A stretch of 32,000 nucleotides of DNA from Candidatus Scalindua sp. (GCA_031316235.1 JALDRA010000001.1:2850001-2882000); one strand, 5' to 3'. Numbered from the stretch's first letter, positions 8,679-24,108 are shown. Notes: generated from the letters alone by a model not told the origin. Numbers and translations are program-made.

Positions 8679-8765
8679 TATACTGAAACCGGACCAGGCG
8701 CCGAGGACTTTACTCGCTCAAATGTATCTCGGATTTTATCCGAAAATCATTATGAGATGAGTATA
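8679..8765 (+). repeat. Bipartite palindromic element, copy 1 (module A truncated to its first ~10 nt, carries the extra CCGGAC...GAGGACTTTA segment, module B complete)
   Basis: TATACTGAAA-CCGGACCAGGCGCCGAGGACTTTA-CTCGCTCAAATGTATCTCGGATTTTATCCGAAAATCATTATGAGATGAGTATA. Module B is near-identical to copies 2-6. Confidence 0.85.
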
Positions 8766-8803
8766 TTTTCATAATTACGTTAGAAACAGGTAAATATTAA
8801 TTT

Positions 8804-8818
8804 TGGCCAACTTTTTGC
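8804..8818 (+). promoter_or_regulatory. Candidate sigma54 (-24/-12) promoter with no obvious gene directly downstream
   Basis: TGGCCA-ACTTT-TTGCG, with exact GG-N10-GC spacing. The next convincing CDS (flgM) starts 450 nt downstream. Confidence 0.3.
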
Positions 8819-9184
8819 GTTTAAATACACCATCTTCTGGTACAACCTGATGCAACGGTTGCGCATCTTTTTGATTTTTTGCTAAAGTATTTGTAGTGAG
8901 TGACGATAGTAAAGAGAAAAGCTGTTGTAACTTTTGTGTAAGGAGTTTAGAATTGAAAGGGTTAGAGTATGAGTATTTTGATGATATTTATCCATCAATT
9001 TTAAAAAAACATCCGTCATTCTTTAAAAGTATGGTATTACATGTAGCAGGATTCTTTGTCTGCCTGTGGCGTAGAGTATATTAAATTTCAGGAATCTGAG
9101 ATGACGGTTGGATGAGATATTGTCATGAGTGAGTTTTGCCTGACAGAGAGCTCTCTTGAGGTTACAATAGATGGATTTATTTGT

Positions 9185-9211
9185 TAAACTGAAAAGAAAA
9201 GTGGGTGATAA
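9185..9211 (+). promoter_or_regulatory. Candidate sigma28 (FliA)-type promoter for flgM
   Basis: TAAACTGA-N11-GGTGATAA. It matches TAAAGTTT at 5/8 and GCCGATAA at 6/8 with consensus spacing, and ends 57 nt upstream of the flgM ATG. flgM is a classical FliA-dependent gene in characterised systems. Confidence 0.45.
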
Positions 9212-9267
9212 TTGTGTGTGGTTCAGTTATTCATTTCTTACTATTTGCTGAATAGGAGGTGTTTATA

Positions 9268-9597
9268 ATGCCAATAGAAAGTGTTTCTCATGTAGGTCAT
9301 GGGTTGATTGACAGTATTAAGGGTGACAATGCTCTTAAAAAAAATGAAGGAATTAAACCTGTTTCTGGAGTATCTAAGGAGGGACATAACCTTAATGTAG
9401 TCGATAAAGTTGAAATTTCTGAAGAAGTGCAAGGATTACAAAATATGTTGTCGAAGCTTAAGGCTGATCTGGAAAAAGTACCAGATGTGCGTCCTGGAAA
9501 GGTTGAACACGCAAGGAAACGTATGGAAAGCGGATTTTACGATAAACAGGATGTGATTGCCAAGGTTGCTGGAGACATAAAGAAGCTGACAATTTAA
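9268..9597 (+). CDS. flgM: Anti-sigma-28 factor FlgM
   Basis: AGGAGG lies 7 nt upstream of the ATG at 9268; the ORF-track start at 9259 has no RBS. Small, Gly/Lys-rich N-terminus. C-terminal FlgM signature: VDKVEISEE...LEKVPDVRPGKVEHARKRMESGFYDKQDVIAKVAGDI. Confidence 0.8.
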   Translation: MPIESVSHVGHGLIDSIKGDNALKKNEGIKPVSGVSKEGHNLNVVDKVEISEEVQGLQNMLSKLKADLEKVPDVRPGKVEHARKRMESGFYDKQDVIAKVAGDIKKLTI

Positions 9598-10014
9598 AGT
9601 TTCTGGAGAATCCTCTTTTTGTATCCGGAACCGTCATAACCATTTCGTTTGGTGGTAAACGAGGTTTCGCTAGAATACAGCAAAAATTTTTGATGATCGG
9701 CAAAATATCGATCTATTTTTCCACTGGCCCTTAAATAAGGTTCCCGGGCAGTAAAATCATTTGCTGACTGGGAACCTCTTTTTGTTTTCAGGCTGCAATG
9801 TTTTACCCCTTTTGTTTCACACACCAGAAAATATTTCGTTTCTTATCCTCCTCGGTATTTTAAATCTAAATAAGCTTGCCATTAATTCATTATAAGACGA
9901 GTATAAAACTTCCTTTCAGATGTATGACTCCATCCTGAGCTGACTTCAATGTCTCATTTTAGCCTTAAAAAAGGATACCGCAGGACAACGGGATAGTATC
10001 AATAGCTGCTGTTT

Positions 10015-10029
10015 TGGCATTAAATATGC
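10015..10029 (+). promoter_or_regulatory. Candidate sigma54 promoter for the TPR gene at 10082
   Basis: TGGCAT-TAAAT-ATGCT with exact GG-N10-GC spacing. The predicted start site near 10041 is downstream of the ORF-track ATG at 10037 and upstream of the in-frame ATGs at 10082 and 10094. Confidence 0.45.
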
Positions 10030-10081
10030 TGAGTGTATGCTAGTCAAGAATGGAAGTTTTACAGTTTTACCTGATAGGGAA

Positions 10082-11335
10082 ATGGAGACAGTAATGGAAA
10101 ATACGGGAAAGATTCTCTCTCTGTTTGGCATAATCCGGAGTTTTTGCATTGTTGTAACGGTTGTTCCTGTTTTCCTGTTTCCTGTTTCTTCTGAATGTGA
10201 AGCAGGAAAGAAATATAAGATGGTTGTCTTACCATTCCGAGATAATACCTCCATGGATTTCGGGGAGATGGTTTCTGATGTTTTGAGGAGTATGGTAACT
10301 CAAACAAAGTATTTTGAATCTGTGGAGAGAGACAAGATGTATGAGACCATAATCACCGTGTTGCCTAGTAACTTGATAAAAGTGGATAATATAACGAGGA
10401 TAGGGGGTGAATTTACTGCAAACCAGATAGATGTGATTTCCCGTTTGGAGAGAAAAAAGATTCAGAAGGTTTGCAAGAAATTGAGAGCTGACTACGTCAT
10501 AAAGGGTAGTATCTCTCAGGTTGCTGATGTGTTGAGGGTTGATGTTGAGATTATAGATGTCAAGGAAAACGAACTGTTAGGATTTGTTGATGTAGAAGGG
10601 ATGCCTGAAAAATTGTTAACGGGTATGTTGGAAGAGTTGACTGGCAAAATATCACTCTTCTGTAAAAACATAAATTCTTATAATGATGCGCTGTACATTT
10701 TGGGGCAATATAACCAGGGACTGTATACCCTTGATGTGGCGGAAAAAAAACTTAAAGAACTCCTTTCGGGTATTCAAAATTCAATTGGAATACGGGCAGT
10801 ACTCATGACGCTCTATCTGTCGGAAAATTCAAAAATACAATTCCGATCACTACAACAGGATAGCTTTTCTGAAATAGGTGACAAGATAACGGGAGAGGGG
10901 GAAGAAATTTTGAAACTTTTACAGAACAGGTATGATGAAAAAGTTCTTGAAGTATTTCTCTCTATGGGTCTTGATCCTTTTAAAGAAGTTGCAAATATTT
11001 ATGTAAAGAGAGGTGATACCAAAAAAGCCATTGACATATACCGCAAGGCAATTAGAGTCTACCCGATAAATCTCGCTGAACACTATACAGAAATTGGGAG
11101 GTTGTATAACAGACAAGGTATGGACAGTGAGGCTATACAGGCTTTTGAAATGGCATTGGAAATAAATAGTAGTAATAATGAATTACGCTTAGTCTTGGCA
11201 GGATTATTAAAGAAAAACAGATTTCCAGAAAGAGCACGGAATCATCTTGAAGTGTGCATGAAATATGCAAGGAATGCTGAGGAAATTGAGCATGTCAGGG
11301 AAGAGATTAGCAAATTGCCGGTTTCCGTTCAGTAG
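10082..11335 (+). CDS. Exported protein: N-terminal alpha/beta domain resembling the TolB_N/CsgG/LpoB/FlgO-type fold, plus C-terminal TPR repeats
   Basis: Signal-peptide-like N-terminus (ILSLFGIIRSFCIVVTVVPVFLFPV). KMVVLPFRDNTS...GEMVSDVLRSMV...YFESVERDKM...ADYVIKGSISQVADVLRVDVEIIDVKENELLG is the pattern of that periplasmic domain class. The C-terminus is TPR-like (KAIDIYRKAIRVYPINLAEHYTEIGRLYNRQGMDSEAIQAFEMALEIN). Start chosen at 10082 (AGGGA RBS); 10094 is also possible. Confidence 0.8.
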   Translation: METVMENTGKILSLFGIIRSFCIVVTVVPVFLFPVSSECEAGKKYKMVVLPFRDNTSMDFGEMVSDVLRSMVTQTKYFESVERDKMYETIITVLPSNLIKVDNITRIGGEFTANQIDVISRLERKKIQKVCKKLRADYVIKGSISQVADVLRVDVEIIDVKENELLGFVDVEGMPEKLLTGMLEELTGKISLFCKNINSYNDALYILGQYNQGLYTLDVAEKKLKELLSGIQNSIGIRAVLMTLYLSENSKIQFRSLQQDSFSEIGDKITGEGEEILKLLQNRYDEKVLEVFLSMGLDPFKEVANIYVKRGDTKKAIDIYRKAIRVYPINLAEHYTEIGRLYNRQGMDSEAIQAFEMALEINSSNNELRLVLAGLLKKNRFPERARNHLEVCMKYARNAEEIEHVREEISKLPVSVQ

Positions 11336-11619
11336 GAATATTTCCTTACTTTGCAGTATAAGATTCACCATTTATATAATAAAATCAGAAATAAATTGTT
11401 TATTTTTTAAACATTTTGTGTAGAATGCTACCACGCCAAAAAAGATGTTTCTTTATAGCCCCAGAAGATTTAATGAAATAACAGATATCTATAAGGGAAT
11501 TTTAGGTTTTCATATGAGTATTCTGGCAGGGACTCTTTTTTTTATAGATATACGCAGAGATATCTTACCAATAGATAAAAAATCTTTTTTGTATCCAGAA
11601 ATTTGGAGGAATCTGGGAA

Positions 11620-13017
11620 ATGAGTGACAGTAAGAGCGGTCATGAGACTGGAAGTCAGGCAGGAGTAAAGCCAGTAATCCTTGTAGTTGATGATGAGGAA
11701 ACCATCAGGTCCTGTTTAAAAGAGGCTCTGGAGGGAGAGGGTTATAAGGTCTATATCGAAGAGAATGGGAAAAATTCCTTAAGTTTAATAAAGAGGGTGG
11801 TTCCTGATTTAGTTTTGGTGGATTTAAAAATGCCGGGTATGAATGGTATTGATCTGTTGAGAGAGGTAAAATCTCTTGATCGGAATATCCTCGTAATTCT
11901 TTTAACCGGGCATGGTTCTGTTGATACAGCGGTAACTGCTATTAAGGCGGGCGCCTTTGATTATTTGGAGAAACCCTTTAAAATCGAGCATATCAAGGTC
12001 GTTGTCGGTAAGGCCTTAAGTACTCAATCTTTAATGAGGGAAGTGATAAGGCTCAGGGAAAAAGCTGGTGTTATTGGGATTGAAAATGTAATTGCTGTCA
12101 GTAAAGAGATGAAGAAGGTCTTTGAACATGTCAAAATAATAGCGGAAAGCCCATCAAGCACGGTATTGATCCAGGGGGAGAGTGGAACAGGAAAAGAATT
12201 GATTGCGAATTATATCCATACGATGAGTTCTCGGAGTAATTACAGATTTGTTGATATAAATTGTGCTGCTTTGACAGAAAATTTGCTTGAAGCTGAGTTG
12301 TTTGGTTATGAAAAAGGAGCTTTTACGGGTGCTTCTTCAACAGGTAAGTCCGGTTTGTTTGAGGTCGCACAAAGGGGATCTATATTTCTTGATGAGATAG
12401 GTGAAATGAGTATGCCCTTACAGGCTAAATTATTAAGGGCATTACAGGAAAAGAGGTTCAAAAGGGTGGGGGGCATAGATGATATAGATGTGGATGTGAG
12501 GATAATAGCCTCAACCAATAGAAATTTGGAAGAAGAAGTGGATAAAGGTCAATTTAGAAAGGATCTCTACTATCGCTTAAAAGTTTTACCCGTGTATTTA
12601 TATCCTCTGAGGGAGAGGAAGGATGATATTGTTCCTCTTGCAAAATCCTTTGTGCACAAGTTTAATAACGAATTTAAAAAGAAGGTCAATACTATAACCT
12701 CGGAAATAGAAGGAATCCTGGTGAATTATGATTGGCCTGGTAATGTCAGAGAATTAAAAAACGTGGTAGAACGGGCAGTTCTCCTTTCAAGCACAAACAC
12801 GCTTTCTGCTGAGCATATATTATTAGGGAATGTATTTAGTAAGAAAAATGAGGCTGAAGATACGATAACAGATCTCTCTATTTCTGCTGTCGAGCAGAAA
12901 CATATAACGAAAATCCTTAAGGAAACATCATGGAGAATGACAAAAGCTGCTAAAATTCTGGGTATCAACCGTACCACTTTATACAACAAGATTAAGCAAT
13001 ATAATTTAAAACAGTGA
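11620..13017 (+). CDS. Sigma54-dependent response regulator (NtrC family: REC + AAA+ + Fis-type HTH)
   Basis: REC with DLVLVDLKMPGMNG. Walker A GESGTGKE. Sigma54-contact loop EKGAFTGAS. WPGNVRELKN. C-terminal HTH MTKAAKILGINRTTLYNKIKQY. GGAGG lies 10 nt upstream. Confidence 0.95.
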   Translation: MSDSKSGHETGSQAGVKPVILVVDDEETIRSCLKEALEGEGYKVYIEENGKNSLSLIKRVVPDLVLVDLKMPGMNGIDLLREVKSLDRNILVILLTGHGSVDTAVTAIKAGAFDYLEKPFKIEHIKVVVGKALSTQSLMREVIRLREKAGVIGIENVIAVSKEMKKVFEHVKIIAESPSSTVLIQGESGTGKELIANYIHTMSSRSNYRFVDINCAALTENLLEAELFGYEKGAFTGASSTGKSGLFEVAQRGSIFLDEIGEMSMPLQAKLLRALQEKRFKRVGGIDDIDVDVRIIASTNRNLEEEVDKGQFRKDLYYRLKVLPVYLYPLRERKDDIVPLAKSFVHKFNNEFKKKVNTITSEIEGILVNYDWPGNVRELKNVVERAVLLSSTNTLSAEHILLGNVFSKKNEAEDTITDLSISAVEQKHITKILKETSWRMTKAAKILGINRTTLYNKIKQYNLKQ

Positions 13018-13073
13018 CTTCAGGTGAGCAGCAAAGAAGTATAAGTTGAAAATCTTCTCTGCAGAATGAAGTG

Positions 13074-13185
13074 TATACTAAAACCGATCTGGTTTTCGGT
13101 TTTACCGGAAACCAGATCTTGGTGAAGGTATACTCGCTCAAATTTATCTCGGATTTTATCCGAAATCCATTATGAGATGAGTATA
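13074..13185 (+). repeat. Bipartite palindromic element, copy 2 (reference copy, 112 bp: 59-bp module A + 53-bp module B)
   Basis: Module A: TATACTAAAACC-GATCTGGTTTTCGG-TTTTA-CCGGAAACCAGATC-TTGGTGAAGGTATA. Module B: CTCGCTCAAATTTATCTCGGATTTTATCCGAAATCCATTATGAGATGAGTATA. The copy ends 11 nt before the RBS of the gene at 13208. Confidence 0.9.
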
Positions 13186-13207
13186 CAAGCCCACAAAAGG
13201 AGATGAT

Positions 13208-13690
13208 GTGGAGGTATTTGAAAAAAAACTGGGAGAGATCTTGATTGATGAAGGGAAAGTCTGTTTGGAGGATGTGAAATCTGCTTTATCAATCCAAAAA
13301 AAAAGTTCTCAGCATAAACTTTTAGGTGGAATCTTAATCGAGCTAAGTTTGATTTCAAAGGATGATTTGGCTCTTGCGTTGAATAGGCAGCTTCTGTATA
13401 CATCAGAAACAAATGCGTTGGGTCTGGATTTAAGTGATGATGATAGAATTAAGAAAATTGCAGATAAATATCGGGGATCTGAATATTTTGAAGAGTTAAA
13501 CGAGTTGATTGGTGTGATAACTCACAAGATACGCAATCCATTGTCCGGTATTTCTGCTGCCGTTGAGGTTCTTCGAGAAAAAGTTGGGGTCAGCGATGTA
13601 AATGAAAAGTTCTTTAAGATGATTTTTAAAGAAATAGATAGTTTGGAAAAAGTAGCAAAAAATCTTTTCAGGGAATTTTCTCACAAGTAA
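13208..13690 (+). CDS. Small signalling protein: N-terminal T2SSE_N/MshEN-like domain plus a HisKA (DHp) module with H-box, no ATPase domain
   Basis: GTG start 5 nt after AAAGGAG. KLGEILIDEGKVCLEDVKSALSIQ and LLGGILIELSLISKDDLALALNRQ fit the 24-residue MshEN motif. LIGVITHKIRNPLSGISAAVEVL is a HisKA H-box. The protein ends at 160 aa with no N, G1 or G2 boxes. Confidence 0.8.
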   Translation: MEVFEKKLGEILIDEGKVCLEDVKSALSIQKKSSQHKLLGGILIELSLISKDDLALALNRQLLYTSETNALGLDLSDDDRIKKIADKYRGSEYFEELNELIGVITHKIRNPLSGISAAVEVLREKVGVSDVNEKFFKMIFKEIDSLEKVAKNLFREFSHK

Positions 13691-13715
13691 TATTTGGTAA
13701 TTGGGAAACCGGTAC

Positions 13716-14855
13716 ATGAACTTCAGAATTCTGTTGGTGGATGACGAGGAAACGCTCAGGTCTGTTTTACAAGAGACCCTGGCTGGAGAAGGCTATAGTG
13801 TTGATGTCGCAAATGATGGCTTTCAGGCTCTGGAACGTTTCAAGATCACATCATATGATTTACTTATTACCGATGTAAGGATGCAAGGCATGGATGGTTT
13901 ACAACTTATCCGTGAGATTAAGAAAAATGGCCTGCCGGTAAATGTTATTATGATTACCGCATACGGTTCTGGAGAGGCTATAAAAGAAGCAATGCGGCTG
14001 GGTGTTGTGGAATTATTTAATAAACCATTTAAACTGCAGGAAATAAAAGACGCAATAACGAGAATACTGAACCGTATTTTGCATGAAAAAGGAAAGAATT
14101 CCATTTCTTCAAGAGCAGAAAACCGTGAAGAACTATCCATAGCAGATTCTCTTTTGGTACCTGCAGGTTTGTCGTATTATGTAGGAGTACCGGGAAATCA
14201 ACAATGGAATACAGCAGTTTTTGATTTTGTTGCCAGAAACAGTAAAAAGGCTTTGGCCATATTTGGAAATATTCATAGCAGGGCTGAAAGGCCTGGTGAA
14301 TGGTGGGATAACAGGCAGATAACAATAATGATTCAGACTCTCTTTAGGTCTAATATGAAGAGTACTCCAAGAAAAATTGTATCGGTAATTAATGATTTTC
14401 TGTCGAGAAATATTTTTCCGCATGTTGAGGTTTCAATACTCTGTCTTCTGGTAGATGTGAAAAAGAGTGAGATCCGGTATGTACATTATGGAAGCAATCT
14501 GGTGTGTTCTGTTTTTTCTCCCGGTGGGAAGATTGAAATCTTGGAATCCTGTCCTGTTTTGCTGGGTGTATCTCCAGGGGTTGAAATATGCGAGAGTTCG
14601 ATGACATATGGTGATGAAAACCAACTGATGTTGCTGGGTTGCAATTCGATAACAAGTGTTGCAGAAAGAGAGTCGCTTTTGAGACAAGCAGTTGATGTCG
14701 TTTTGTTGTCAACGAGATATAATCAAAGAATACAATTGAATAAGGAAGCCTTCAGATCACGGATTGCGAATAAGAAAGAGGCAGACTTTGATGATGAAAC
14801 GTACGTATTGATGAATCTTGATTGGGATGATACCGTGAGTTTCGCACAAAACTAA
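13716..14855 (+). CDS. Response-regulator receiver fused to a degenerate SpoIIE/PP2C-like domain
   Basis: REC: ILLVDDEETLR, DLLITDVRMQGMDG, VIMITAYG, LFNKPF. The C-terminal half aligns by eye to SpoIIE blocks: VFDFV...LAIFGNIHSR; VSILCLLVDVKKSEIRYVHYGSN; PVLLGVSPG...GDENQLMLLGCNS. The usual DVSGHG and TDG Asp residues are absent. Start taken at ATG 13716; the ORF-track TTG at 13701 is possible. Confidence 0.8.
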   Translation: MNFRILLVDDEETLRSVLQETLAGEGYSVDVANDGFQALERFKITSYDLLITDVRMQGMDGLQLIREIKKNGLPVNVIMITAYGSGEAIKEAMRLGVVELFNKPFKLQEIKDAITRILNRILHEKGKNSISSRAENREELSIADSLLVPAGLSYYVGVPGNQQWNTAVFDFVARNSKKALAIFGNIHSRAERPGEWWDNRQITIMIQTLFRSNMKSTPRKIVSVINDFLSRNIFPHVEVSILCLLVDVKKSEIRYVHYGSNLVCSVFSPGGKIEILESCPVLLGVSPGVEICESSMTYGDENQLMLLGCNSITSVAERESLLRQAVDVVLLSTRYNQRIQLNKEAFRSRIANKKEADFDDETYVLMNLDWDDTVSFAQN

Positions 14856-14984
14856 AAGAAAAGATACACTCAAAAGTGATAGATAAAGGTGCAGGATTCA
14901 GTATTGCATTCCTTTGAAGATTTACCCTCAATGCCTCAATTTGGGTTTGGTTTGATGTTGTGAGTGGAAAAGAGGAATTACGGG

Positions 14985-15755
14985 ATGCTTAAATTCATAC
15001 CTGAAAGACTTCGGCGTATACCAGGAAAGTGCAAATCTGTTCCGGGAAGGTTGGATTCCTTTATACAGGGTACCGGTGGATATAAGGTATTTGTCTACAT
15101 AAATCTTGCAATCTTATCATTGATCGTTGTGCTTATCTTGCTGCAACAGAGTTGGATTAATAAAGAAAAGAAGGCCATAACGGATATAGTAAATGTGCAC
15201 AATATTGACAATGTTCAGAAGAAAGATGAAGCTGCAGAGATGTCGAGTGGATCGCACAGTGGTATCGCGCAAGAAGAACTGCATTCCATCGATGAATTAC
15301 AGCTTACCATAAAGAAAAAGATAAAAGAAGCTGATCTCTATTTTGTCTATGAGCAGTATGATAAGGCTGCACCGATTTATGAAGAGTTATCTGCAGCAAA
15401 GAATTTTTTTGATGAAAAGGATAAGGTGCTTAACAATCTTGCCGAAAGTTATTTTTGTTTGGGTAATTTTGAACTTGCTATGGAAACATATCGGAAGCTA
15501 TTGAACGATTATTTTAATACACCTTACAGGTTGAATGCTCAATTAGGAGAAGGGAAGTGCCTGATTCATTTAAGTAAATTTGGTGAAGCACGTAGAGTTT
15601 TATACCTACTGGTTGCCAAGGAGGCAGATTATGATGGGGAAGATGATAAAGCGAAGATTATAGAAGCGTATTATAACATTGCAGAAAGTTATATAGCACA
15701 AGCAATGGAACATAAGGATAAAGGCCGGGTAATTAGTAATCATGAAAATTTGTAA
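14985..15755 (+). CDS. Membrane-anchored TPR-like protein
   Basis: ATG lies 8 nt after AGAGGA; the ORF-track GTG at 14964 is less likely. One TM segment (VFVYINLAILSLIVVLILL), then TPR-like helices (ADLYFVYEQYDKAAPIYEEL, NLAESYFCLGNFELAMETYRKLL). Lies 12 nt from the next gene. Confidence 0.75.
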   Translation: MLKFIPERLRRIPGKCKSVPGRLDSFIQGTGGYKVFVYINLAILSLIVVLILLQQSWINKEKKAITDIVNVHNIDNVQKKDEAAEMSSGSHSGIAQEELHSIDELQLTIKKKIKEADLYFVYEQYDKAAPIYEELSAAKNFFDEKDKVLNNLAESYFCLGNFELAMETYRKLLNDYFNTPYRLNAQLGEGKCLIHLSKFGEARRVLYLLVAKEADYDGEDDKAKIIEAYYNIAESYIAQAMEHKDKGRVISNHENL

Positions 15756-15766
15756 AGAATAAGTAC

Positions 15767-17485
15767 ATGAAAATAGAAAACGCATCTCCTTTTTTTGTGT
15801 TGTTGATTTTTATTCTCTTTATAGGATTTGGGAAAGATTGCGGTGCAGGTGTTCGAAACGAAAAAAGGGATCATTTGTCAACACCTGTCGGAAATGTGGA
15901 TGAAAAAAGATTAGTGTTTGAAAAGAAACTCTTGGAAGGATTGATGAAGTTGTTAGACTTGAAACAGCACGAGATTGTTCCTGATAAGCAAAAGACAGCT
16001 GAACGAATTATTAAAAATGAAAATCTGTTCGTTAAGAGAGAAGTCAATGATAGAGGAATAGTGCTTTATACCGTGAATGCACAATTTGTACCCATCAATG
16101 ATATATTAGAGGCAATTGCTTCCTATAGCGGGAGAAAGATTTTCATAGATGAGGATATTGGGGAGAAGACAATGACTACCGTTGTTTCTGTCTCTTTAGA
16201 GAATACCCCGTTTTCAGACATAATGGAGATCATTATCGGATCAAGCGGTCTTGAGTCGATAGTAAGCGATGACATTGTCATTGTCACATTACCAGCCAAA
16301 CTGGATGTCGTTTCTGCTTATGATTATTATAAGGAAAAGGCCGTACAGGTCTATCAGATGGCAATGATTAAATATCCAGATTATGAGAACATTGCAGATG
16401 CGTATTTTGAGCTTGGAGATTTTTATCTGGCTGCAGGCCTTCCAACGATTGCATTACAAGAGTTCCAAATCATTCTGGAAAAATACAAAGGGTATCCGAA
16501 AGGAAACATATCGATGTATAACATCGCTAAATGTTATGAATTGCTTGGCGATACTGAAAATGCATTAAAAAGTTACCTGATGTATGCAAAAAAATATCCG
16601 AGAGATGCTAATGTTGGTGATGCCTATCTTAAAGCCGGTGATTTGTGGAGAAAACAAAATGAGTATCAAAAGGCTATTGAAATCTTTAAATATATCATTT
16701 CTGAGTTTCAAGGGAAAGATATTGCAAGGGTTGCAGAGTTGCGTTTAGGATATACGTACATTGACAATGAAGACTATGTTTCTGCATTGAAGTTATTCAC
16801 GGAGATGAAAGAGAGAGAATTGTTTCGTGACTTTCACAATGAGATCGAATATCAAATGGGGAACTGCTGCTATCTGATGGGTGAGTATTCCAAAGCAATT
16901 GACATATTAAATAAATTTATCATGTATAATGAAGGAAATGAGCTTCTCGTTGATGCGTATTATAAACTGGCGGATTGTTTTTTTAAACTTGAGGAATATC
17001 TAGCGGCATTTCAATTATATAAAGGTGCTCTCTCGGAATTTAATGAAAGCAGTTTAGCACCCTATGGTTACCTGCATTGTGGAATATCCCTGCGCAAGTT
17101 GAAGATGTTTGAAAATGCTGCAAAAATTCTTAGAGAAGGATTCCGCCTCTATCCGGACAATGTATACACGGGAAGTATGAAATTTGAGATGGCCCTATGT
17201 TATTACGAGGATGGAAATTTCAAGCGTGCTTTTGATGTTTTCGAAAGCATTACCCAGGACACATCAAACAGCTCTTTTGCTGTTGAGGCTAATATGTATG
17301 CTGGTATCTGCCTTAGCGGGGAAAAGCAGTATCAGAGAGCATTGGAATTCTATCAAAAGGCACTCGATGCAGCACCCGCCATGGAAGAGAGGGAGTGGAT
17401 ATTTAGTTTAATAGGCGATTGTTATACTGAACTTGGTGAATTGGCCAATGCGGTAAAGGCATATCAACAAGAGTTTCCTCGATAA
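15767..17485 (+). CDS. Exported protein with an STN/secretin-N0-like domain followed by a long TPR array
   Basis: N-terminal hydrophobic segment (FFVLLIFILFIGFG). VNAQFVPINDILEAIASYSGRKIFIDEDI...VSVSLENTPFSDIMEIIIGSSGLESIVSDDIVIVT matches the STN/secretin N-terminal pattern. Then at least 8 TPR/YbgF-like repeats (e.g. ADAYFELGDFYLAAGLPTIALQEFQIILEKYKGYP). Confidence 0.8.
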   Translation: MKIENASPFFVLLIFILFIGFGKDCGAGVRNEKRDHLSTPVGNVDEKRLVFEKKLLEGLMKLLDLKQHEIVPDKQKTAERIIKNENLFVKREVNDRGIVLYTVNAQFVPINDILEAIASYSGRKIFIDEDIGEKTMTTVVSVSLENTPFSDIMEIIIGSSGLESIVSDDIVIVTLPAKLDVVSAYDYYKEKAVQVYQMAMIKYPDYENIADAYFELGDFYLAAGLPTIALQEFQIILEKYKGYPKGNISMYNIAKCYELLGDTENALKSYLMYAKKYPRDANVGDAYLKAGDLWRKQNEYQKAIEIFKYIISEFQGKDIARVAELRLGYTYIDNEDYVSALKLFTEMKERELFRDFHNEIEYQMGNCCYLMGEYSKAIDILNKFIMYNEGNELLVDAYYKLADCFFKLEEYLAAFQLYKGALSEFNESSLAPYGYLHCGISLRKLKMFENAAKILREGFRLYPDNVYTGSMKFEMALCYYEDGNFKRAFDVFESITQDTSNSSFAVEANMYAGICLSGEKQYQRALEFYQKALDAAPAMEEREWIFSLIGDCYTELGELANAVKAYQQEFPR

Positions 17486-17883
17486 GACAAATCCTGAAAT
17501 TTTTCCTGCCCGGTGTGATGAATAGCAGGGTTAACATTTTTTTTCATGATTAGGCAGGTTGTGAATAAAATGAACAGATCGTATAAAAAACCGGCGGGTA
17601 ATTCTCCGTAAACGTACACTTCTTTTTCCTTCCAAATATTTTTGATCAGGAGTACTGCTAACGGTTTCCCGGTTAAAAATGTTGTTTGACGATTGCTACC
17701 ATTTTCTTATTCAGGCCTGCTGTTTTATTACATCCTGTCTGCTTTGTTATTTGCATCATTAACTCGTTCCGTCCAATCTCCATCATCTGCTACGTATCGA
17801 AGGTAATATTTTTCCGTCATGAAGTTTCCGGTATATGTGTATATGCTGATTTGTTTATAGAGGCTGTTCTTCACCCCTGTTAG

Positions 17884-17898
17884 TGGCACTAAGTTTGC
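17884..17898 (+). promoter_or_regulatory. Sigma54 promoter (consensus-perfect core) for the 18079-20093 operon
   Basis: TGGCAC-TAAGT-TTGCG is a full match to TGGCAC-N5-TTGC. A 10-base match is expected well under once by chance in this window. It is intergenic and correctly oriented. The predicted start is near 17910. Confidence 0.6.
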
Positions 17899-17932
17899 GG
17901 GAATATGTTGTCTGTTCTTCTCTTCTGGAAAG

Positions 17933-18046
17933 TATACTCATCTCATAATGGTTTTCGGATAAAATCCGAGAAAAAACTGAGCGAGTATACCTTCACCAAG
18001 ATCTGGTTTCCGGTAAAACCGAAAACCAGATCTTGGTGAAGGTATA
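17933..18046 (-). repeat. Bipartite palindromic element, copy 3 (inverted orientation; module A symmetrised into a 28-bp-arm palindrome)
   Basis: Module B (rc) occupies 17933-17989. Positions 17986-18046 read TATACCTTCACCAAGATCTGGTTTCCGG-TAAAA-CCGAAAACCAGATCTTGGTGAAGGTATA. The arms are complementary at 27 of 28 positions. Confidence 0.9.
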
Positions 18047-18078
18047 TAAAAAACAGTATGTAACTTTTATTTGTTTCC

Positions 18079-18831
18079 ATGAATAGTAAATTACGAATTA
18101 CTGGTATGATTTCTTTTGGCTTGTTTCAGTTTTTTTCGTCTTCATATCTCTTTGGTGAATTTGAGACGAAGAAGAGTGATCAATCTCAGGCGGAGAATGA
18201 AAGCGCTCTGGAAGAAAAATATAGTGAAGAAGAGCTGGAGATAGAGAAGATGGCGAATAGGCTGAAAGAGGAGAAAAAAGAATTAGAAAAGCTCAAGATT
18301 AAGTTTGATAAGGTAAGTAAAAAGGGTAAGCAGAGGAATAGGTCTGAGGGTGAAGCCGGAAAAGATTTCAAGGATGAATCAATGAGTATTGCTGGAGAAA
18401 ATATACCGAGAGATCAGCTAATTTCTCTCTTCGGTCACCGTGAAGAAGAAAAGGTCCCCGATAAAGCTGATCGGAATATGGTTGTTGGAGAAAATAAAAA
18501 AGAAAAAATTATCATAAAGGATAAAGACAAAATCGTACAACCTTTCGAAATCGCCGAAAACCTTTATAAAATGGAAGAGTATCAGTTGTCCCTGGATATT
18601 TATAAATTAATAAAGGTAGAAGAGGCAGAGGAGAACGGATCCTGGATAAAATATCAGATTGCGAATTGTTATAGAAATTTAAAACAATTTGATAAGGCGG
18701 TGGAAATGTACAAAGAGGTCGACAAAGAGTTTGAAGGTTCATATTGGGCGAAACAGTCGCAATGGTATATACAGGATATAGAGTGGCGTAAAGAGATAGA
18801 TGGTAAAATAAAAGCGGTTGTTGAAAAATGA
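18079..18831 (+). CDS. Exported coiled-coil (Lys/Glu-rich) protein with a C-terminal TPR-like motif
   Basis: Signal-like N-terminus (ITGMISFGLFQFFSSSYLFG). EEKYSEEELEIEKMANRLKEEKKELEKLKIKFDK coiled coil. The C-terminus NLYKMEEYQLSLDIYKLI...IANCYRNLKQFDKAVEMYKEV is TPR-like. Its stop overlaps the next ATG (ATGA). Confidence 0.75.
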   Translation: MNSKLRITGMISFGLFQFFSSSYLFGEFETKKSDQSQAENESALEEKYSEEELEIEKMANRLKEEKKELEKLKIKFDKVSKKGKQRNRSEGEAGKDFKDESMSIAGENIPRDQLISLFGHREEEKVPDKADRNMVVGENKKEKIIIKDKDKIVQPFEIAENLYKMEEYQLSLDIYKLIKVEEAEENGSWIKYQIANCYRNLKQFDKAVEMYKEVDKEFEGSYWAKQSQWYIQDIEWRKEIDGKIKAVVEK

Positions 18832-20093
18832 AAAATGTAAATTCTCAAATCGTGAGGAATAAAAAACAGAATAAGATGTCAGATCTTTCAGTAATATTCG
18901 ACAGCTTCAATTCTAATGCGTTGAAGTTGGAGGCATCTTATAAGCAGCTTCAGGGCAGGATAAGAGAAATAGATCGTGAGATGGCTCAAGCAAATGAATG
19001 TCTCAATAAGAAAGTTCAGGAGTTGAATAAATTAACCAGATACCTCAACAGTGTACTTGAAAGTATGTACTGTGGTGTTGTAGCCATAGATATGGATGGT
19101 AGAATTGAAACTTTTAACAAGTCTGCAGAGAAAATTCTACAGGTGAAAGCGAGTAACGTTTTAGGTAAAAGTATTCAAAACGCCTTAGCTCAAACCAATG
19201 GTTTCAACGATCTGCTGCTCAAATCCCTGTCAACGAAAAAAAATGTATTTAATCAGAAAAGAGTCATAGCGTTAAAAGATGGAAACTCAAGATATTTAGA
19301 GAGTAGTGTCACAATCCTGCAGGACAAGTATGGTATTGTTACCGGCCTTGTGGAAATATTTCAGGATTTATCTGAGATTCGCGAATTGAAGGGGCGTTTG
19401 TACAGTGTTAACGATCTCATTTCAGTCGGTACGATGGCTGCAAGTATTGCACATGAAATAAGAAATCCGCTGAATGGTATTGCAGGCTTTGCCTGCTTAC
19501 TACAAAAAGAGTTGAAGGGGAAAAATCTCAAACTTGTAGATTATATTATCCTGGGTACAAAAAACATTAACAAGATCGTGTCAGATCTGTTGCTCCTTGC
19601 CCGGCCAATTACATTAAACTTGAGAAGCTGTCTGCTGTCAGATGTTTTAGATAGAAGTCTGGTTCTTGTATCACAAGAGTCAAGGAAAAGAGAAGATAAA
19701 AATATTCAAATCAAGAAAAAATACATGCTTAGAAACAACAATATTGTCTGTGATCCCGAACGTTTGCAGCAAGCATTTCTCAACATAATTCTTAATGCTA
19801 TTCAAGCAATGCATGAAGGTGGAGAGCTCACGGTATTTACTCAGGAATTATCAGAGGATGGTTTTTGTGGAGTACAGATTGGCTTTTCAGATACGGGTGA
19901 AGGTATCAGTAATGATTCTATGAAAAATGTATTCGAACCATTTTTTACTACGAAGACCGATGGAACAGGTCTTGGTTTAATGGTAGTTCGCAAGATTATC
20001 GAACTCCATGGAGGTGAAATTTCTATTGAGAGTGAAAAGGAAAAAGGTTCTACCATATTGCTGACATTACCCGAAATCCCAAATGAAATGTAA
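18828..20093 (+). CDS. Cytoplasmic PAS sensor histidine kinase (FlrB/FleS-like)
   Basis: No TM segment. PAS (LESMYCGVVAIDMDGRIETFNKSAEKIL). H-box AHEIRNPLNGIAGF. N box LNIILNAIQAM. G1 FSDTGEGI. G2 GTGLGLMVVRKIIELHGG. Confidence 0.93.
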   Translation: MKNVNSQIVRNKKQNKMSDLSVIFDSFNSNALKLEASYKQLQGRIREIDREMAQANECLNKKVQELNKLTRYLNSVLESMYCGVVAIDMDGRIETFNKSAEKILQVKASNVLGKSIQNALAQTNGFNDLLLKSLSTKKNVFNQKRVIALKDGNSRYLESSVTILQDKYGIVTGLVEIFQDLSEIRELKGRLYSVNDLISVGTMAASIAHEIRNPLNGIAGFACLLQKELKGKNLKLVDYIILGTKNINKIVSDLLLLARPITLNLRSCLLSDVLDRSLVLVSQESRKREDKNIQIKKKYMLRNNNIVCDPERLQQAFLNIILNAIQAMHEGGELTVFTQELSEDGFCGVQIGFSDTGEGISNDSMKNVFEPFFTTKTDGTGLGLMVVRKIIELHGGEISIESEKEKGSTILLTLPEIPNEM

Positions 20094-20120
20094 AAGGATG
20101 TCTATGGGGAACAGATTAAG

Positions 20121-20232
20121 TATACTCATCAGATAATAGTTTTCGGATAAAATCCGAGATAAAATTGAGCGAGTATACCTTCACCAAGATTTTGTTTCCG
20201 GTAAAACCGAAAACAAAATCAGTTTTAGTATA
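20121..20232 (-). repeat. Bipartite palindromic element, copy 4 (inverted orientation) between the histidine kinase and its presumed response regulator
   Basis: TATACTCATCAGATAATAGTTTTCGGATAAAATCCGAGATAAAATTGAGCGAGTATA + CCTTCACCAAGATTTTGTTTCCGGTAAAACCGAAAACAAAATCAGTTTTAGTATA. The stem is GATTTTG/CAAAATC instead of GATCTGG/CCAGATC. Confidence 0.9.
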
Positions 20233-20346
20233 TTCCGGAAGTATTTTATCTCGATTTACTGTTCATATTTGAATTCACACTTTGAGTTCTGGTTACCAGG
20301 GGATTGAAATGGATGATGGGAATTTTTATTGCTGGAGGAAAAACAA

Positions 20347-21771
20347 TTGAGGATTGAAAAAATTCTGATAGTAGATGATGATGATTTAAGCAGAAGCTAT
20401 ATAAGTGAGGTTCTGGTGAGGAATGGTTATACGGTAGAAAATGCTGATGACGGCCATAAGGCCATATCCATGATTACTAATACCAGTTATGACATAATTT
20501 TTCTCGATCTGAAGATGCCTGGACTGAGTGGATTGGATGTCCTGAAAAAGATTAAAATGAACAGCAAGGAAGAAACTATTGTTGTCATGATGACAGCATA
20601 TGGCAGCATTGAATCAGCTGTTGAGGCGATGAGAATCGGTGCTTATGATTATGTTATAAAACCATTTTCACTTGATCAGATTGAATTGCTCTTAAAGAGA
20701 GTTCAGGAACGTCAGGATTTGATAGATGAAAACAAGTATTGGCGATCAAGGGTTGATGGCAATGAGGTTCTTTATAAAACGGTAATGAATGAAAGTTCCA
20801 AGATGTATAAGATCTATCAAAATGTAAAGAAGATAGCTCAAAGTAAGGCTAGTGTACTTATTCAGGGTGAAAGTGGAACGGGGAAAGAGTTGATAGCACA
20901 AGCCATTTATTTACAAAGCAACAGATGTAAAGGGCCATTTATAAAGGTTAATTGTGCAGCCTTGTCTGAAAGCCTGCTTGAGAGTGAATTGTTCGGGCAT
21001 GAAAGAGGATCTTTTACAGGGGCTGATGCAAAGAGACTCGGCCGTTTTGAGCTTGCTAACAATGGTACTTTGTTACTTGATGAGATTAGTGAAATCTCTC
21101 AAAAAATTCAATCGAAGCTGTTAAGGGTTTTGGAGGAAGAAGAGTTCGAGAGGGTTGGTGGATCCAAGACTATCAAAGTTGATGTTAGGATTATTGCAAC
21201 GACAAATAGAAATATTCCGCTCGAAATTGAAGAAAACAAGTTTCGTCAGGATCTTTACTTCCGATTAAACGTTATTCCCATTATGATGCCTCCCTTACGG
21301 GAACGAAAAGTGGACATACCGGCACTCGTTGATTATTTTTTAAAAAAATACACTTGTGGTTCAAATGCTTCCGTAAAAGGGATTAGCGATGAGGCAAAAG
21401 ATTTGTTAATCAATTACTATTGGCCGGGTAACGTGAGAGAACTTAAGAATCTGATACACAGATGCGTTGTTATGGTAGATTCGGATATGTTACTTCCTGA
21501 ACATTTTAAAAATATGCTGAATGTTAATTGTGTTCCGAAAGAAAAAGATTTTATATCCGGAAAAACCATTGAAGATCTGGAACGAGTCTTAATTTATAAA
21601 ACACTGAAAGAAACGAATGGTAATAAGACCAAGGCGGCGGAAATACTGGATATAACACCACGGACCCTAAGAAATAAATTAAACAAATATAAGAGTGACA
21701 ATTATCATGGAGTAATTGATGAAGATGTTAATAAGGATGATCCTGTCATCGAGGAAAGTTTTTCCTTCTAG
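20347..21771 (+). CDS. Sigma54-dependent response regulator (NtrC family; FlrC/FleR-like)
   Basis: REC DIIFLDLKMPGLSG. Walker A GESGTGKE. ERGSFTGAD (GAFTGA variant). WPGNVRELKN. HTH KTKAAEILDITPRTLRNKLNKY. Start taken at TTG 20347, 7 nt after GGAGGA; the ORF-track TTG at 20329 is in frame and possible. Confidence 0.93.
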   Translation: MRIEKILIVDDDDLSRSYISEVLVRNGYTVENADDGHKAISMITNTSYDIIFLDLKMPGLSGLDVLKKIKMNSKEETIVVMMTAYGSIESAVEAMRIGAYDYVIKPFSLDQIELLLKRVQERQDLIDENKYWRSRVDGNEVLYKTVMNESSKMYKIYQNVKKIAQSKASVLIQGESGTGKELIAQAIYLQSNRCKGPFIKVNCAALSESLLESELFGHERGSFTGADAKRLGRFELANNGTLLLDEISEISQKIQSKLLRVLEEEEFERVGGSKTIKVDVRIIATTNRNIPLEIEENKFRQDLYFRLNVIPIMMPPLRERKVDIPALVDYFLKKYTCGSNASVKGISDEAKDLLINYYWPGNVRELKNLIHRCVVMVDSDMLLPEHFKNMLNVNCVPKEKDFISGKTIEDLERVLIYKTLKETNGNKTKAAEILDITPRTLRNKLNKYKSDNYHGVIDEDVNKDDPVIEESFSF

Positions 21772-21884
21772 GAGTGAATATTTTTCCCCATGCTGGTTTT
21801 CAGCTGGAGCCTGACCATTCAGAATATTTTATAAGAAGTGTTGTGATAAGGAAATAGTACAAATTATTAGAATTGTTCGTGTGC

Positions 21885-21899
21885 TGGTACTTGAGTTGC
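21885..21899 (+). promoter_or_regulatory. Candidate sigma54 promoter upstream of flgB
   Basis: TGGTAC-TTGAG-TTGCG with exact spacing. Caveat: the predicted start site (~21911) lies only ~2 nt before the flgB ATG. Confidence 0.35.
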
Positions 21900-21912
21900 G
21901 TACTTGAAAGTC

Positions 21913-22272
21913 ATGATTACATTCGATAAAAATACAGAGCTCCTCTCAAAGTTATTGGATTTAACTTCGACAAAAAGCAAGGTAATAGCGAACAATATTG
22001 CAAACGTGAATACCCCTGGCTATCAAAAATTGGAAGTTACGTTTGAAAAAGAACTGCAGGATGCTATTGCACAGGGGAGCATTGAGAATATTAAGAGTCT
22101 GAAAGAGAAGATTGAACTTTCTCACGATGCAGGTAACGGAAAAGATGGAAATAGTGTAGATATCGATAAAGAGATGATAGATTTTTTCAAAAGTTCTGAT
22201 AAACACAATATGTATCTCGATATTCTGGTAAAGAAATTCAAGAATCTAATTTATGCTATCGAATCTAAGTAG
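21913..22272 (+). CDS. flgB: Flagellar proximal rod protein FlgB
   Basis: KSKVIANNIANVNTPGYQKLEV rod-protein N-terminal signature. About 120 aa. Followed by flgC. ATG 21913 preferred over the ORF-track TTG at 21904. Confidence 0.9.
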   Translation: MITFDKNTELLSKLLDLTSTKSKVIANNIANVNTPGYQKLEVTFEKELQDAIAQGSIENIKSLKEKIELSHDAGNGKDGNSVDIDKEMIDFFKSSDKHNMYLDILVKKFKNLIYAIESK

Positions 22273-22302
22273 GAAATTCCATAAATAAAGGAGAAAGAAA
22301 AT

Positions 22303-22746
22303 ATGTCTGTATTTGGAAAATCATTTTCAGTATTGGATATTAGTGCATCAGGTCTTACGGCGGAAAGGGCGAGAATGCGCGTTATTGCAAATAATATTGC
22401 AAATGCTCAGGTTACCGAAACAGCAACAGGAGGTCCCTATAAGAGACAGCAGGTTGAATTTGAAAGTATTCTCAAACAATCGATGTTGAGCCGATTCTCA
22501 AAAGCTGCTGAAACGGGTGGTGTAAAAGTAAAGGGGATTATGGAGAGCAATGATTTACCTAATATGGTCTATATACCAGGACACCCAAAAGCAAACAAAG
22601 AAGGTTATGTGGAAATGCCAAATGTAAGTGTCTCAAAAGAGATGGTAGACCTTATTGCGGCATCAAGGTCTTATGAGGCAAATACCGCAGTTGTTACTAC
22701 CTACAGGAAAATGAACGAGAGGGCACTCAACATTATAAGGAGGTAA
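22303..22746 (+). CDS. flgC: Flagellar proximal rod protein FlgC
   Basis: LDISASGLTAERARMRVIANNIANAQVT...YVEMPNVSVSKEMVDLIAASRSYEANTAVV. AAGGAG RBS. Confidence 0.95.
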   Translation: MSVFGKSFSVLDISASGLTAERARMRVIANNIANAQVTETATGGPYKRQQVEFESILKQSMLSRFSKAAETGGVKVKGIMESNDLPNMVYIPGHPKANKEGYVEMPNVSVSKEMVDLIAASRSYEANTAVVTTYRKMNERALNIIRR

Positions 22747-22751
22747 CAGGT

Positions 22752-23051
22752 ATGGATTTGTCTACAGTAAATGCTATTACGAATAAGAATATTGAGAAAA
22801 ATTTCACAAAGAAAATTGCACAGGAGAGTGGAACAAATTTTAAAGGAACCCTGGGAAGTGTTGTTAATGAAGTAAATGATCTTCAGATTAAGGCAGGAGA
22901 ATCAATTGAAAATTTTGCAAGTGGTAAGATTGACAATGTCCATGAGGTTATGATTGCCATGACAAAAGCCGAAGTTAGTTTCAAATTTATGATGGAAACA
23001 CGGAATAAACTTGTGAGTGCGTATAAAGAGATAATGCAAATGCAGGTATAA
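22752..23051 (+). CDS. fliE: Flagellar hook-basal body protein FliE
   Basis: 99 aa. C-terminus VHEVMIAMTKAEVSFKFMMETRNKLVSAYKEIMQMQV is typical of FliE. AGGAGG RBS. Position is after flgC. Confidence 0.9.
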   Translation: MDLSTVNAITNKNIEKNFTKKIAQESGTNFKGTLGSVVNEVNDLQIKAGESIENFASGKIDNVHEVMIAMTKAEVSFKFMMETRNKLVSAYKEIMQMQV

Positions 23052-23452
23052 TCTTTTGTATCACCATATCAAAATGTGAACAACCGTTCATTGCCCGAGA
23101 GTGAAATCGCGGAGCATCTTTCGTCTTTGTTTTAGAAGTAACATGTTATTACAAAATAGTTCAAGCGAGAGACAGCTTTAAAGTGCAGTGTTTAAACAGC
23201 CGTTGTGGATCAATCTCAATGATTACGTTCCGGTACGGAACAGTCAATTTACTCGTCATTTCATTCACCGTATACAAAATTACTAGGCAGCAAGGAACAA
23301 ATGGCTTGAAATTCTATCCTGTTCCGGAAAGAATTCTTCATGCGTGTCCAGCCGGTAACCCTTACCAGACTTCAACATGCAGGCTGGCTGAATTGGGATT
23401 GCAGGCGGCATTACCCGGGGAGGACACTTCCGAACGGTTTCCTACAGGTAGG

Positions 23453-23590
23453 TATACTAAAACTATTTGGTTTTCGGTTTTACCGGAAACCAAATCTTGG
23501 TGAAGGTATCTCCGGACAAAAAGCGTCGAGGACTTTACACGCTCAAATTTATCTCGGATTTTATCCGAAAACCATTATGAGATGAGTATA
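23453..23590 (+). repeat. Bipartite palindromic element, copy 5 (138 bp; ~27-nt extra segment between modules)
   Basis: TATACTAAAACTATTTGGTTTTCGGTTTTACCGGAAACCAAATCTTGGTGAAGGTAT + CTCCGGACAAAAAGCGTCGAGGACTTTA + CACGCTCAAATTTATCTCGGATTTTATCCGAAAACCATTATGAGATGAGTATA. Confidence 0.9.
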
Positions 23591-23747
23591 TCTCGTTATC
23601 AGATCATCTTCGACTGCTCTTCACTCACCGGATCCGTTGTCCAACTCAGATTACTCCTGCAGTATAACTCGATCAGGTTGACCAGTCCAGACCTGAAACT
23701 GAGTGTGATAGCATGCCAAAATTTCTAGTCCTGAACCCTGAATAAGA

Positions 23748-23859
23748 TATACTAAAACCGATCTGGTTTTCGGTCTTTCTGAAAACCAAATCTTGGTTAA
23801 GGTATACTCGCTGCATTTTATCTCGGATTTTAACCGAAAACCATTATGAAATGAGTATA
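23748..23859 (+). repeat. Bipartite palindromic element, copy 6 (112 bp, slightly degenerate stem)
   Basis: TATACTAAAACCGATCTGGTTTTCGGTCTTTCTGAAAACCAAATCTTGGTTAAGGTATA + CTCGCTGCATTTTATCTCGGATTTTAACCGAAAACCATTATGAAATGAGTATA. Confidence 0.9.
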
Positions 23860-24055: not shown

Positions 24056-24108
24056 ATTTTATGATATGCATTTTTCTATTTGATTAATTTGTCTATGGAG
24101 CACCGAAC

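Follow-up and report, generated by a model that had tools for sequence, protein, structure and literature searches.

A TA-flanked, non-coding repeat with IS630-like ends is dispersed between the genes of Candidatus Scalindua

Why does a flagellar locus of Candidatus Scalindua, a marine anammox planctomycete, carry the same palindromic sequence six times? The locus lies in a stretch of 32,000 nucleotides from Candidatus Scalindua sp. (GCA_031316235.1, JALDRA010000001.1:2850001-2882000), which is called the window here and on which all positions are counted from the first letter. An earlier reading of this DNA from the sequence alone (the original prediction) had taken the six repeats, scattered through the flagellar regulon, for elements of the REP/REPIN kind or for MITEs (miniature transposable elements with inverted repeats). 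It was found that they are genuine copies of a non-coding mobile repeat of about 113 bp which is MITE-like. Very probably the family is a MITE of the IS630/Tc1-mariner type, namely a passenger that is moved in trans by an IS630-family DDE transposase, enters TA dinucleotides, and is filtered by selection. The copies are dispersed genome-wide with an intergenic bias and differ in presence between related loci. One genome in which the MITE occurs also has an intact, multi-copy IS630 element with similar ends, and an IS630-family transposase is recorded for the genome of the window. The basic element is 112-113 nt in length, with derivatives from 57 to 248 nt, and it has no coding capacity. The family is apparently undescribed, as judged from Rfam and the literature, and its class is well known. 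A scan of the whole window at the Rfam gathering thresholds gave no match, and in an E-value scan around copy 2 the best sub-threshold hit was the greA leader (17.4 bits against a cut-off of 60, E = 0.8). The literature searched on Scalindua and anammox bacteria yielded no description of such repeats, of MITEs, or of IS630. The original prediction had likewise been able to name no family.

Are the six repeats really one family? The copies were located by a repeat search, by reading the sequence, and by a six-way alignment. They are 86-96% alike and occur in both orientations. A full copy consists of a module A followed by a module B. Direct repeats connect 13074-13185, 23479-23590, and 23748-23859 (D1) and, for module B, 8698-8766, 13118-13186, 23523-23591, and 23792-23860 (D2). 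Four inverted pairs (I1-I4), 100-113 nt long and 86-96% complementary, connect 13074-13186 and 23747-23859 with 17932-18032 and 20120-20232. Since the matches reach at least 100 nt at 86-96%, they are not due to chance. Profile searches of the window with modules A and B returned the same six places and none besides. The 113-nt unit folds into two hairpins on either strand (-41 to -46.5 kcal/mol; z from -5.6 to -8.6 relative to shuffled sequences), and TATAC/GTATA marks the start of the element, the A/B junction, and the end. The sequence GGTTTTCGG or a close variant is present four times per element, arranged as two inverted pairs with TTTTA between the members of each, and this arrangement gives rise to both hairpins. 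The hairpins need not have any cellular function. Only mechanically called open reading frames (ORFs) overlap the copies: 23183-23503, without a Pfam hit, 23340-23585, and 13170-13412 on the minus strand. No called genes correspond to them in the orthologous loci of three relatives (L121, L122, and L123; fetched loci bear L numbers and proteins P numbers). No transposase was found in the window. Thus, the description given by the original prediction, with six copies whose boundaries prove exact, a two-hairpin architecture, both orientations, no convincing coding sequence underneath, and no transposase nearby, holds in each of these respects.

The ends of the element and the sites into which it has gone were compared next to each other. 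The left end reads TATACTAAAACCGATTTGGTTTTCGG and the right end, read inward, TATACTCATCTCATAATGGTTTTCGG; 18 of the 26 positions match. The terminal inverted repeat (TIR) is therefore an imperfect one of 26 nt with the form TATACT-N11-GGTTTTCGG, in which the matches are concentrated in TATACT and GGTTTTCGG. The GGTTTTCGG motif may be the inner, transposase-binding part of the end. The sequence TATACTA begins 115 of 126 elements and GAGTATA finishes 109 of them, and the left flank beyond the TA contains no further conserved target. The fetched loci offer three clear comparisons between filled and empty sites, and the window adds two that support them. The filled sites in L007 and L015, ccttgTA[TACT...GAGTG]TAcctggg, correspond to the empty site ccttgTAcctggg and lie inside another repeat family, whose dozens of uninterrupted copies serve as clean empty-site controls. 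The same TA pattern was seen when filled L080 was compared with empty L036 (cacagaaTAttattg) and filled L042 with empty L108. The comparisons of window copy 2 with L123 (empty site GGTATACAATCCCAC) and of window copy 3 with L121 are consistent with the pattern. Since the comparisons agree, the element is flanked by TA on both sides where the empty site has a single TA. The host family in L007 and L015 is a second, unrelated repeat of about 155 bp; its ends, (TA)GTGTTTGAACGAAAAC, are inverted repeats, and its dozens of copies are 82-96% identical (for example L001 ~314-481, L098 4157-4313, L054 4427-4582, L083 1047-1204, and many more).

Is the element confined to the flagellar locus, which would speak against a dispersed family? 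An exact scan with the module-B 19-mer TCTCGGATTTTAWCCGAAA found it elsewhere, in more than 120 stretches among the matches listed. Nearly all of those listed belong to Ca. Scalindua sp. SCAELEC01, to Scalindua sp. RBC_AMX3, or to a Scalinduaceae metagenome-assembled genome with megabase-sized contigs, and among the rest a few are from Anammoxibacter, from an uncultured Planctomycetota bin, and from another bin. Matches in Erysipelothrix, Parcubacteria, Emergencia, Syntrophaceae, and Oscillospiraceae were dismissed as chance, as the seed alone was covered. An nhmmer search of ~965 kb, that is, the window and 120 fetched loci that were chosen for the seed and hence bias the density upward, gave 182 copies of module B and 161 of module A. 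Where both modules are present, A is always upstream of B and in the same orientation. Only six of the 126 complete elements lie mostly inside ORFs that serve as a proxy for gene calls and span 70% of this DNA, which is an intergenic bias. Tandem, divergent, and convergent spacers contain 54, 28, and 16 elements, respectively, numbers that scale with how much DNA each type of spacer comprises; within tandem spacers the orientation is mildly biased (35 antisense versus 19 sense). Random insertion followed by the loss of gene-disrupting copies would give such a distribution.

The presence or absence of the copies was compared with the orthologous flagellar loci of the three relatives, in which the gene order is the same and the histidine kinase (18828-20093 in the window) is 82-88% identical. 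L121, L122, and L123 lack every one of the six window copies. L122 has its own copy between a hemerythrin gene and a gene for a tetratricopeptide repeat (TPR) protein, and L123 has its own between a response-regulator/SpoIIE gene and a TPR gene, a site that is empty in the window. The spacer that receives copy 2, between the activator and HisKA genes, is 190 nt in the window versus 70 nt in L122 and 79 nt in L123, and the kinase-activator spacer that receives copy 4 is 235 nt versus 105-151 nt in the relatives. Insertion polymorphism is thus clear at this locus. Of the checks set by the original prediction, those on confinement to one locus and on insertion polymorphism both turn out to favour mobility.

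Which transposase could move an element that encodes nothing? Four SCAELEC01 contigs (L008, L048, L099, and L105; positions 1-125) start about 125 nt inside an insertion sequence (IS). Since they start near the same internal point, the SCAELEC01 assembly breaks at a multi-copy IS. This IS has the end TATACTCATTACGAAATGGTTTTAGG and codes for a transposase C-terminus, ...KACKSFFRRSKKYKEEISSLLTENFQIIGTNT*. Other repeats are shared by other contig ends (for example L015 with L090, L044 with L086, and L008 with L098). An exact 23-mer from the IS end led to two decayed copies in metagenome contigs, which are assigned to the IS630 family because their ORF fragments have the Pfam domains HTH_33, HTH_29, and DDE_3. 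In a decayed IS630 copy from a JGI metagenome contig (L124), a tandem array (GAGCTAAA)n at ~4105-4190 interrupts the transposase frame. Protein searches retrieved many full-length relatives of 343 aa. One of these, P0220 (343 aa, full length for the family), is encoded three times over, by identical copies, in CBDCUS, a Scalinduaceae genome in which the MITE is found as well. Each of the three IS loci (L130-L132) is flanked by TA, with unrelated flanks starting directly past the TA, and their alignment defines the left end (TA)TACCGGTCGCGAAAAAGAATTCGAG and the right end CCTAAAACCATTTCGTAATGAGTA(TA). The catalytic D, D, and E motifs (DG.HPQHN, CDNARYY, and PYSPNLNLIE) are present in the transposase alignment.

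The right end of the MITE matches the right ends of the IS at 20-22 of 26 positions. Its left end matches them at 17-19 of 26 (left-end consensus, 19/26), and the left and right ends of the IS itself agree at 15 of 26. Both MITE ends match the IS left end poorly (13-15/26). When the window was scanned with the IS right end, allowing up to 8 mismatches, all 8 hits were element termini, while shuffled sequences gave 0-2 hits. For the window genome, the records contain an IS630-family protein of 326 aa, P0245, which shares 81% identity with P0220 and is placed on a contig of 4,149,782 bp; the window's own histidine kinase, P0001, is likewise recorded on a 4,149,782-bp contig. P0245 is wholly divergent from P0220 over the last ~40 residues, as might result if its gene had suffered a frameshift or an insertion close to the 3′ end. 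If the MITE is indeed of the IS630 type, an intact IS with TATAC...GGTTTTAGG ends is expected in the window genome.

To judge from the likeness of the ends and the shared genomes, mobilisation of the MITE by an IS630-type transposase of Scalindua is most likely, and it would occur by cut-and-paste transposition. The IS transposase, supplied in trans, would bind the MITE ends via its N-terminal helix-turn-helix domains and excise the element. It would then insert it at a TA dinucleotide, which would become duplicated on either side. Selection would purge the gene-disrupting copies, and the remainder would be intergenic and in either orientation. Several points weigh against this account. Mobilisation was not observed, and the link to the transposase consists of end similarity and co-occurrence in the same genomes. 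The match of the MITE left end is moderate to the IS right end (19/26) and poor to the IS left end (13/26). Two bases cannot tell a true TA duplication from a TA-ended element inserted beside a TA. The protein of the window genome has the divergent C-terminus described above, and the ends that were compared come from the IS of other genomes. The loci were picked for carrying the element, which biases copy densities upward, and the 70% coding figure is derived from the ORF proxy. Finally, the strong conservation of the hairpins and the discrete internal modules are not accounted for by transposition alone.

Other candidates for the driver were considered. A search of the fetched loci for an autonomous copy, with element-type ends 300-3500 bp apart, turned up neighbouring MITEs and, apart from these, just two elements that an IS110-family IS had split. 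This IS was rejected as the driver, being a passenger inside the element. Among the long repeats of the loci were ordinary paralogues and a fragment of a DDE_Tnp_1 transposase that is unrelated. A further, third family of MITEs, ~180 bp in length, was also encountered, with the ends TATACCCATCACAAATTGGTTTTCGG and TATACCCATTGCAAAATGGTTTTAGG, which are of the same type as those of the studied element and the IS630 right end (L012 4156-4337, L013 3193-3373, L054 6545-6726, L058 5114-5295, and L114 6093-6274). This family is probably a further passenger of the same transposase; since it bears the same type of end, the IS apparently has several passengers.

Could the hairpins rather than the ends be what a transposase recognises? 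In REP/REPIN systems, palindromic units are spread by a domesticated Y1 HUH transposase (RAYT) that acts on single-stranded hairpins. The two strong hairpins per element, the intergenic copies in both orientations, and a modular, mosaic organisation recalling BIMEs are what such a system would leave. However, a REP unit is a GC-rich palindrome of 20-40 nt with a GTAG-type head, whereas the Scalindua unit is AT-rich and 113 nt long, has 26-nt TIRs and TA on both sides versus a single TA at empty sites, and matches an IS630 DDE element at its ends. An origin as a REP or REPIN is thus highly unlikely, and this option of the original prediction is abandoned in favour of the MITE. No Y1 transposase or RAYT gene was noticed in the fetched DNA, where most ORFs were unscreened. 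An IS200/IS605-derived element would be handled by a TnpA that reads subterminal hairpins on one strand and inserts 3′ of a fixed short target without duplication. The presence of the same loop, TTTTA, on the same strand in both hairpins could be read in this way, and so could a hint of strand asymmetry in hairpin A, whose pairs in 122 distinct copies comprise 1405 Watson-Crick, 149 G.T, and 27 A.C, favouring the top strand. But the asymmetry is reversed in the extension of hairpin B, which favours the bottom strand (C.A in 112 copies, which the opposite strand would show as G.T). In addition, the element has inverted repeats as termini and TA at either side, with no further conserved target in the left flank, and the likeness of the ends is to IS630. 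Derivation from IS200/IS605 is accordingly extremely unlikely, and neither a RAYT nor an IS200/IS605-type enzyme, the mobilisers that the original prediction had proposed to look for, fits ends of the IS630-family DDE type.

A function for the host would be a different answer to the opening question. As a cis-regulatory element of the flagellar and chemotaxis regulon, the repeat would be a site for an enhancer-binding protein or integration host factor (IHF) at sigma-54 promoters, or a structured leader RNA. The six copies do lie among genes for sigma-54 activators, kinases, and flagellar proteins; copy 3 separates a conserved sigma-54 promoter-like site from its gene, copy 6 is just upstream of the conserved fliF regulatory sequence, and GGTTTTCGG-TTTTA-CCGGAAACC resembles a palindromic operator. 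Yet the three relatives retain the gene order and the conserved promoters without any of the six copies, the family occupies hundreds of unrelated loci, the orientation relative to neighbouring genes is either one, and Rfam gave no hit above noise. It is very improbable that the repeat is such an element, and the connection with the flagellar regulon implied by the original prediction dissolves into a genome-wide distribution. A milder version, compatible with the IS630-type MITE, is that a family of the same origin has been kept by the host as an mRNA stabiliser, processing site, or attenuator, roles for which there are reports from Correia and REP elements. Either strand forms a very stable structure, and the stems are well conserved, 1405 of 1649 pair cells being Watson-Crick in hairpin A and 574 of 586 in hairpin B. 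Copies 2 and 3 are probably co-transcribed with the flanking genes, in which case a very stable structure would be put into the mRNA, and the antisense excess in tandem spacers points in the same direction. On the other hand, the conservation of the stems may reflect just young copies and transposase-binding motifs, the elements track spacer length with no preference for the 3′ ends of genes, and scans of 8500-24200 for promoter and terminator consensus sequences showed no excess over shuffles. Such co-option is quite unlikely.

What, then, are the closest known systems? RUP of S. pneumoniae is a non-coding intergenic repeat of ~107 bp with more than 100 copies, and its TIRs are like those that an IS630-family IS of the same genome has; TA is its target, it also enters other mobile elements, and its movement in trans by IS630-Spn1 was proposed because of the end similarity and the TA targets (PMC2229807). 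Each of these features has a counterpart in Scalindua. RUP differs in that about 9 contiguous TIR bases are paired, versus the imperfect 26-nt repeat in Scalindua, where in addition the element is a two-hairpin mosaic with optional discrete modules and a ladder of lengths. The host phylum is another (Scalindua belongs to the Planctomycetota), and no sequence resemblance was seen by eye, no formal comparison having been made. The Correia/NEMIS elements of Neisseria are TA-flanked MITEs with TIRs of ~24-26 bp, hundreds of copies, highly base-paired transcripts, and size classes of ~107 and ~155 bp that differ by an internal block (PMC2229807). The TA-flanked TIR design is the same as in the Scalindua element. 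Scalindua has a candidate IS630 partner, whereas we know of no cognate transposase identified for Correia elements; again no sequence resemblance was seen. For Correia, IHF sites have been documented, and so has processing by RNase III. BOX of S. pneumoniae and the BIMEs of E. coli are modular mosaics with terminal modules, variable internal units, and discrete length classes, and the Scalindua element is a mosaic of modules in the same manner. IS630-like TIRs with TA are not known to bound the units of BOX or of BIMEs, and the latter are made of REP units linked to RAYTs. As for the driver, the transposase of ISY100, an IS630-family element, is reported to bind its TIRs through two helix-turn-helix motifs (PMC2170065). 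The driver proposed here is similarly a transposase of 343 aa with HTH_29, HTH_33, and DDE_3 domains, D/D/E motifs, TA flanks, and imperfect TIRs. The window element differs from ISY100 and other bacterial IS630 members in that it encodes nothing and is a passenger, not a member of the IS family.

The positions of the six copies and the parts of copy 2 are collected in Table 1.

Table 1. The six window copies of the repeat, and the parts of the basic element as seen in copy 2
Feature	Position	Strand	Description
Copy 1	8679..8765	+	Deletion derivative: left terminus TATACTGAAACC, linker variant GGACCAGGCGCCGAGGAC, intact module B, right TIR
Copy 2	13074..13185	+	Full 112-nt basic element, TA at both ends
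Copy 2, left TIR	13074..13099	+	TATACTAAAACCGATCTGGTTTTCGG
Copy 2, hairpin A	13086..13118	+	14-bp stem GATCTGGTTTTCGG / CCGGAAACCAGATC, loop TTTTA (fold)
Copy 2, core hairpin B	13149..13163	+	TCGGA-TTTTA-TCCGA
Copy 2, right TIR	13160..13185	-	Inward: TATACTCATCTCATAATGGATTTCGG; 6/26 mismatches to the IS630 right end
Copy 3	17933..18046	-	Inverted; between sigma-54 promoter-like site (17884-17899) and start codon 18079
Copy 4	20121..20232	-	Inverted; between histidine kinase gene (end 20093) and sigma-54 activator gene (start 20329)
Copy 5	23453..23590	+	138-nt form: module A, linker module TCTCCGGACAAAAAGCGTCGAGGACTT, module B
Copy 6	23748..23859	+	Basic 112-nt form; ~30 nt upstream of conserved block and conserved fliF sigma-54 promoter

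An internal deletion has removed hairpin A from copy 1. Compared with the IS630 right end, the right end of copy 1 has 6 mismatches in 26 positions and that of copy 6 has 4 in 26. Copies 1 and 5 have an extra linker module of 25-27 nt that separates A from B. Copy 2 sits between a sigma-54 activator gene (end 13017) and a HisKA gene (start 13208) and ends about 7 nt ahead of the Shine-Dalgarno sequence of the latter. Module A of copy 3 is a perfect palindrome (29/29; inverted repeat I12). Within 17986-18046, its left arm is TATACCTTCACCAAG in place of TATACTAAAACCG, which makes the palindrome perfect, as though one arm were a copy of the other.

The minus strand of the window carries a chemotaxis cluster with CheA, a methyl-accepting chemotaxis protein, CheX, and CheY-like proteins. 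The genes for FlgM, FlgB/FlgC/FliE, and FliF are on the plus strand, as are those for two sigma-54 activators, histidine kinases, and TPR proteins and the flagellar genes downstream. The sigma-54 promoter-like sites at 17884-17899 and 24040-24055 (TGGCACTAAGTTTGCG and TGGTATATTATTTGCA) are kept in all three relatives. A block at 23891-23930 (TGTATAAAATATGCACGCC..GTCTAAAAAGACTAC), ~110-150 nt upstream of the fliF promoter-like site, is also conserved in all three and may be where an activator binds. Between FliE and FliF the window has a spacer of 1057 nt, versus 428-564 nt in the relatives. Once the two MITE copies are subtracted, an excess of several hundred nucleotides remains (23090-23450), which aligns to none of the three relatives and includes the 106-aa mechanical ORF at 23183-23503 mentioned above.

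How do the different lengths of the element arise? The length classes are 57 nt (3 copies), 112-113 nt (43), 139-140 nt (25), 166 nt (8), and then 194-196, 221-223, and 248 nt, and they differ by discrete modules. A 27-nt linker module, TCCCCGGACAAAAGGCGCCGAGGACTT, lies between GGTA and TACTCG in 54 of the 126 elements; it is present in window copy 5 and, as a variant, in copy 1. The A/B junction occurs in two versions, GGTGAAGG or GGTTGCAGT. Two short SCAELEC01 contigs, L044 and L105, have the left flank in common and contain different internal modules, which suggests exchange between copies.

Further sequences were found inside the MITE. GC-rich, REP-like hairpins of 27-33 nt with the ends CCYGTC...GGCRGG occur 51 times, and in at least 34 of these cases they are located directly past the TTTTA loop of one of the two hairpins, A or B (for example L032 3536, L035 6604 and 6894(-), L043 7642(-), and L056 4765). 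They stack up to 85 nt, and the ladder of element lengths, 113, 140, 166, 194, 221, and 248 nt, has steps of ~27 nt. The same hairpins are found outside the MITE in a few unrelated contexts (L008 2966, L044 4029, L064 466, L092 237, and L121 1970(-)), and the window contains no GC-rich loop insertions. An IS110-family IS of ~1.7 kb (Pfam DEDD_Tnp_IS110 and Transposase_20, with the ORF split in two) lies within the MITE linker at the identical point, between ..GGACAAAAG and GCGCCGAGGAC, in two RBC_AMX3 loci (L074 4440-6277 and L119 3148-5009). The linker variant GGACCAGGCGCC, present in window copy 1 (8696-8710) and in several loci, resembles the right junction of this IS, AACCAG/GCGCC, and may be an IS110 footprint or the core of its preferred target. 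It is conceivable, though doubtful, that the loop-targeted hairpins reflect structure-specific insertion into single-stranded loops and that the MITE is the base layer of nested mobile DNA; the mechanism might then be REP/RAYT-like or something undescribed. If so, the MITE would be a landing pad that steers other mobile DNA away from genes.

What does the family mean for Scalindua? All genomes of anammox Scalindua are assemblies from enrichments or metagenomes. Such assemblies break at a high-copy MITE and its IS630 partner, which also give rise to spurious ORFs and enlarge the intergenic regions, and a defined family helps the annotation. Lineage-specific insertions are usable as markers for strain tracking and for dating divergence. 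Beyond these uses in annotation and as markers, the family is one further case of a well-known class. For the organism itself, copies inside operons or between a sigma-54 promoter and its gene may alter the expression of motility regulators.

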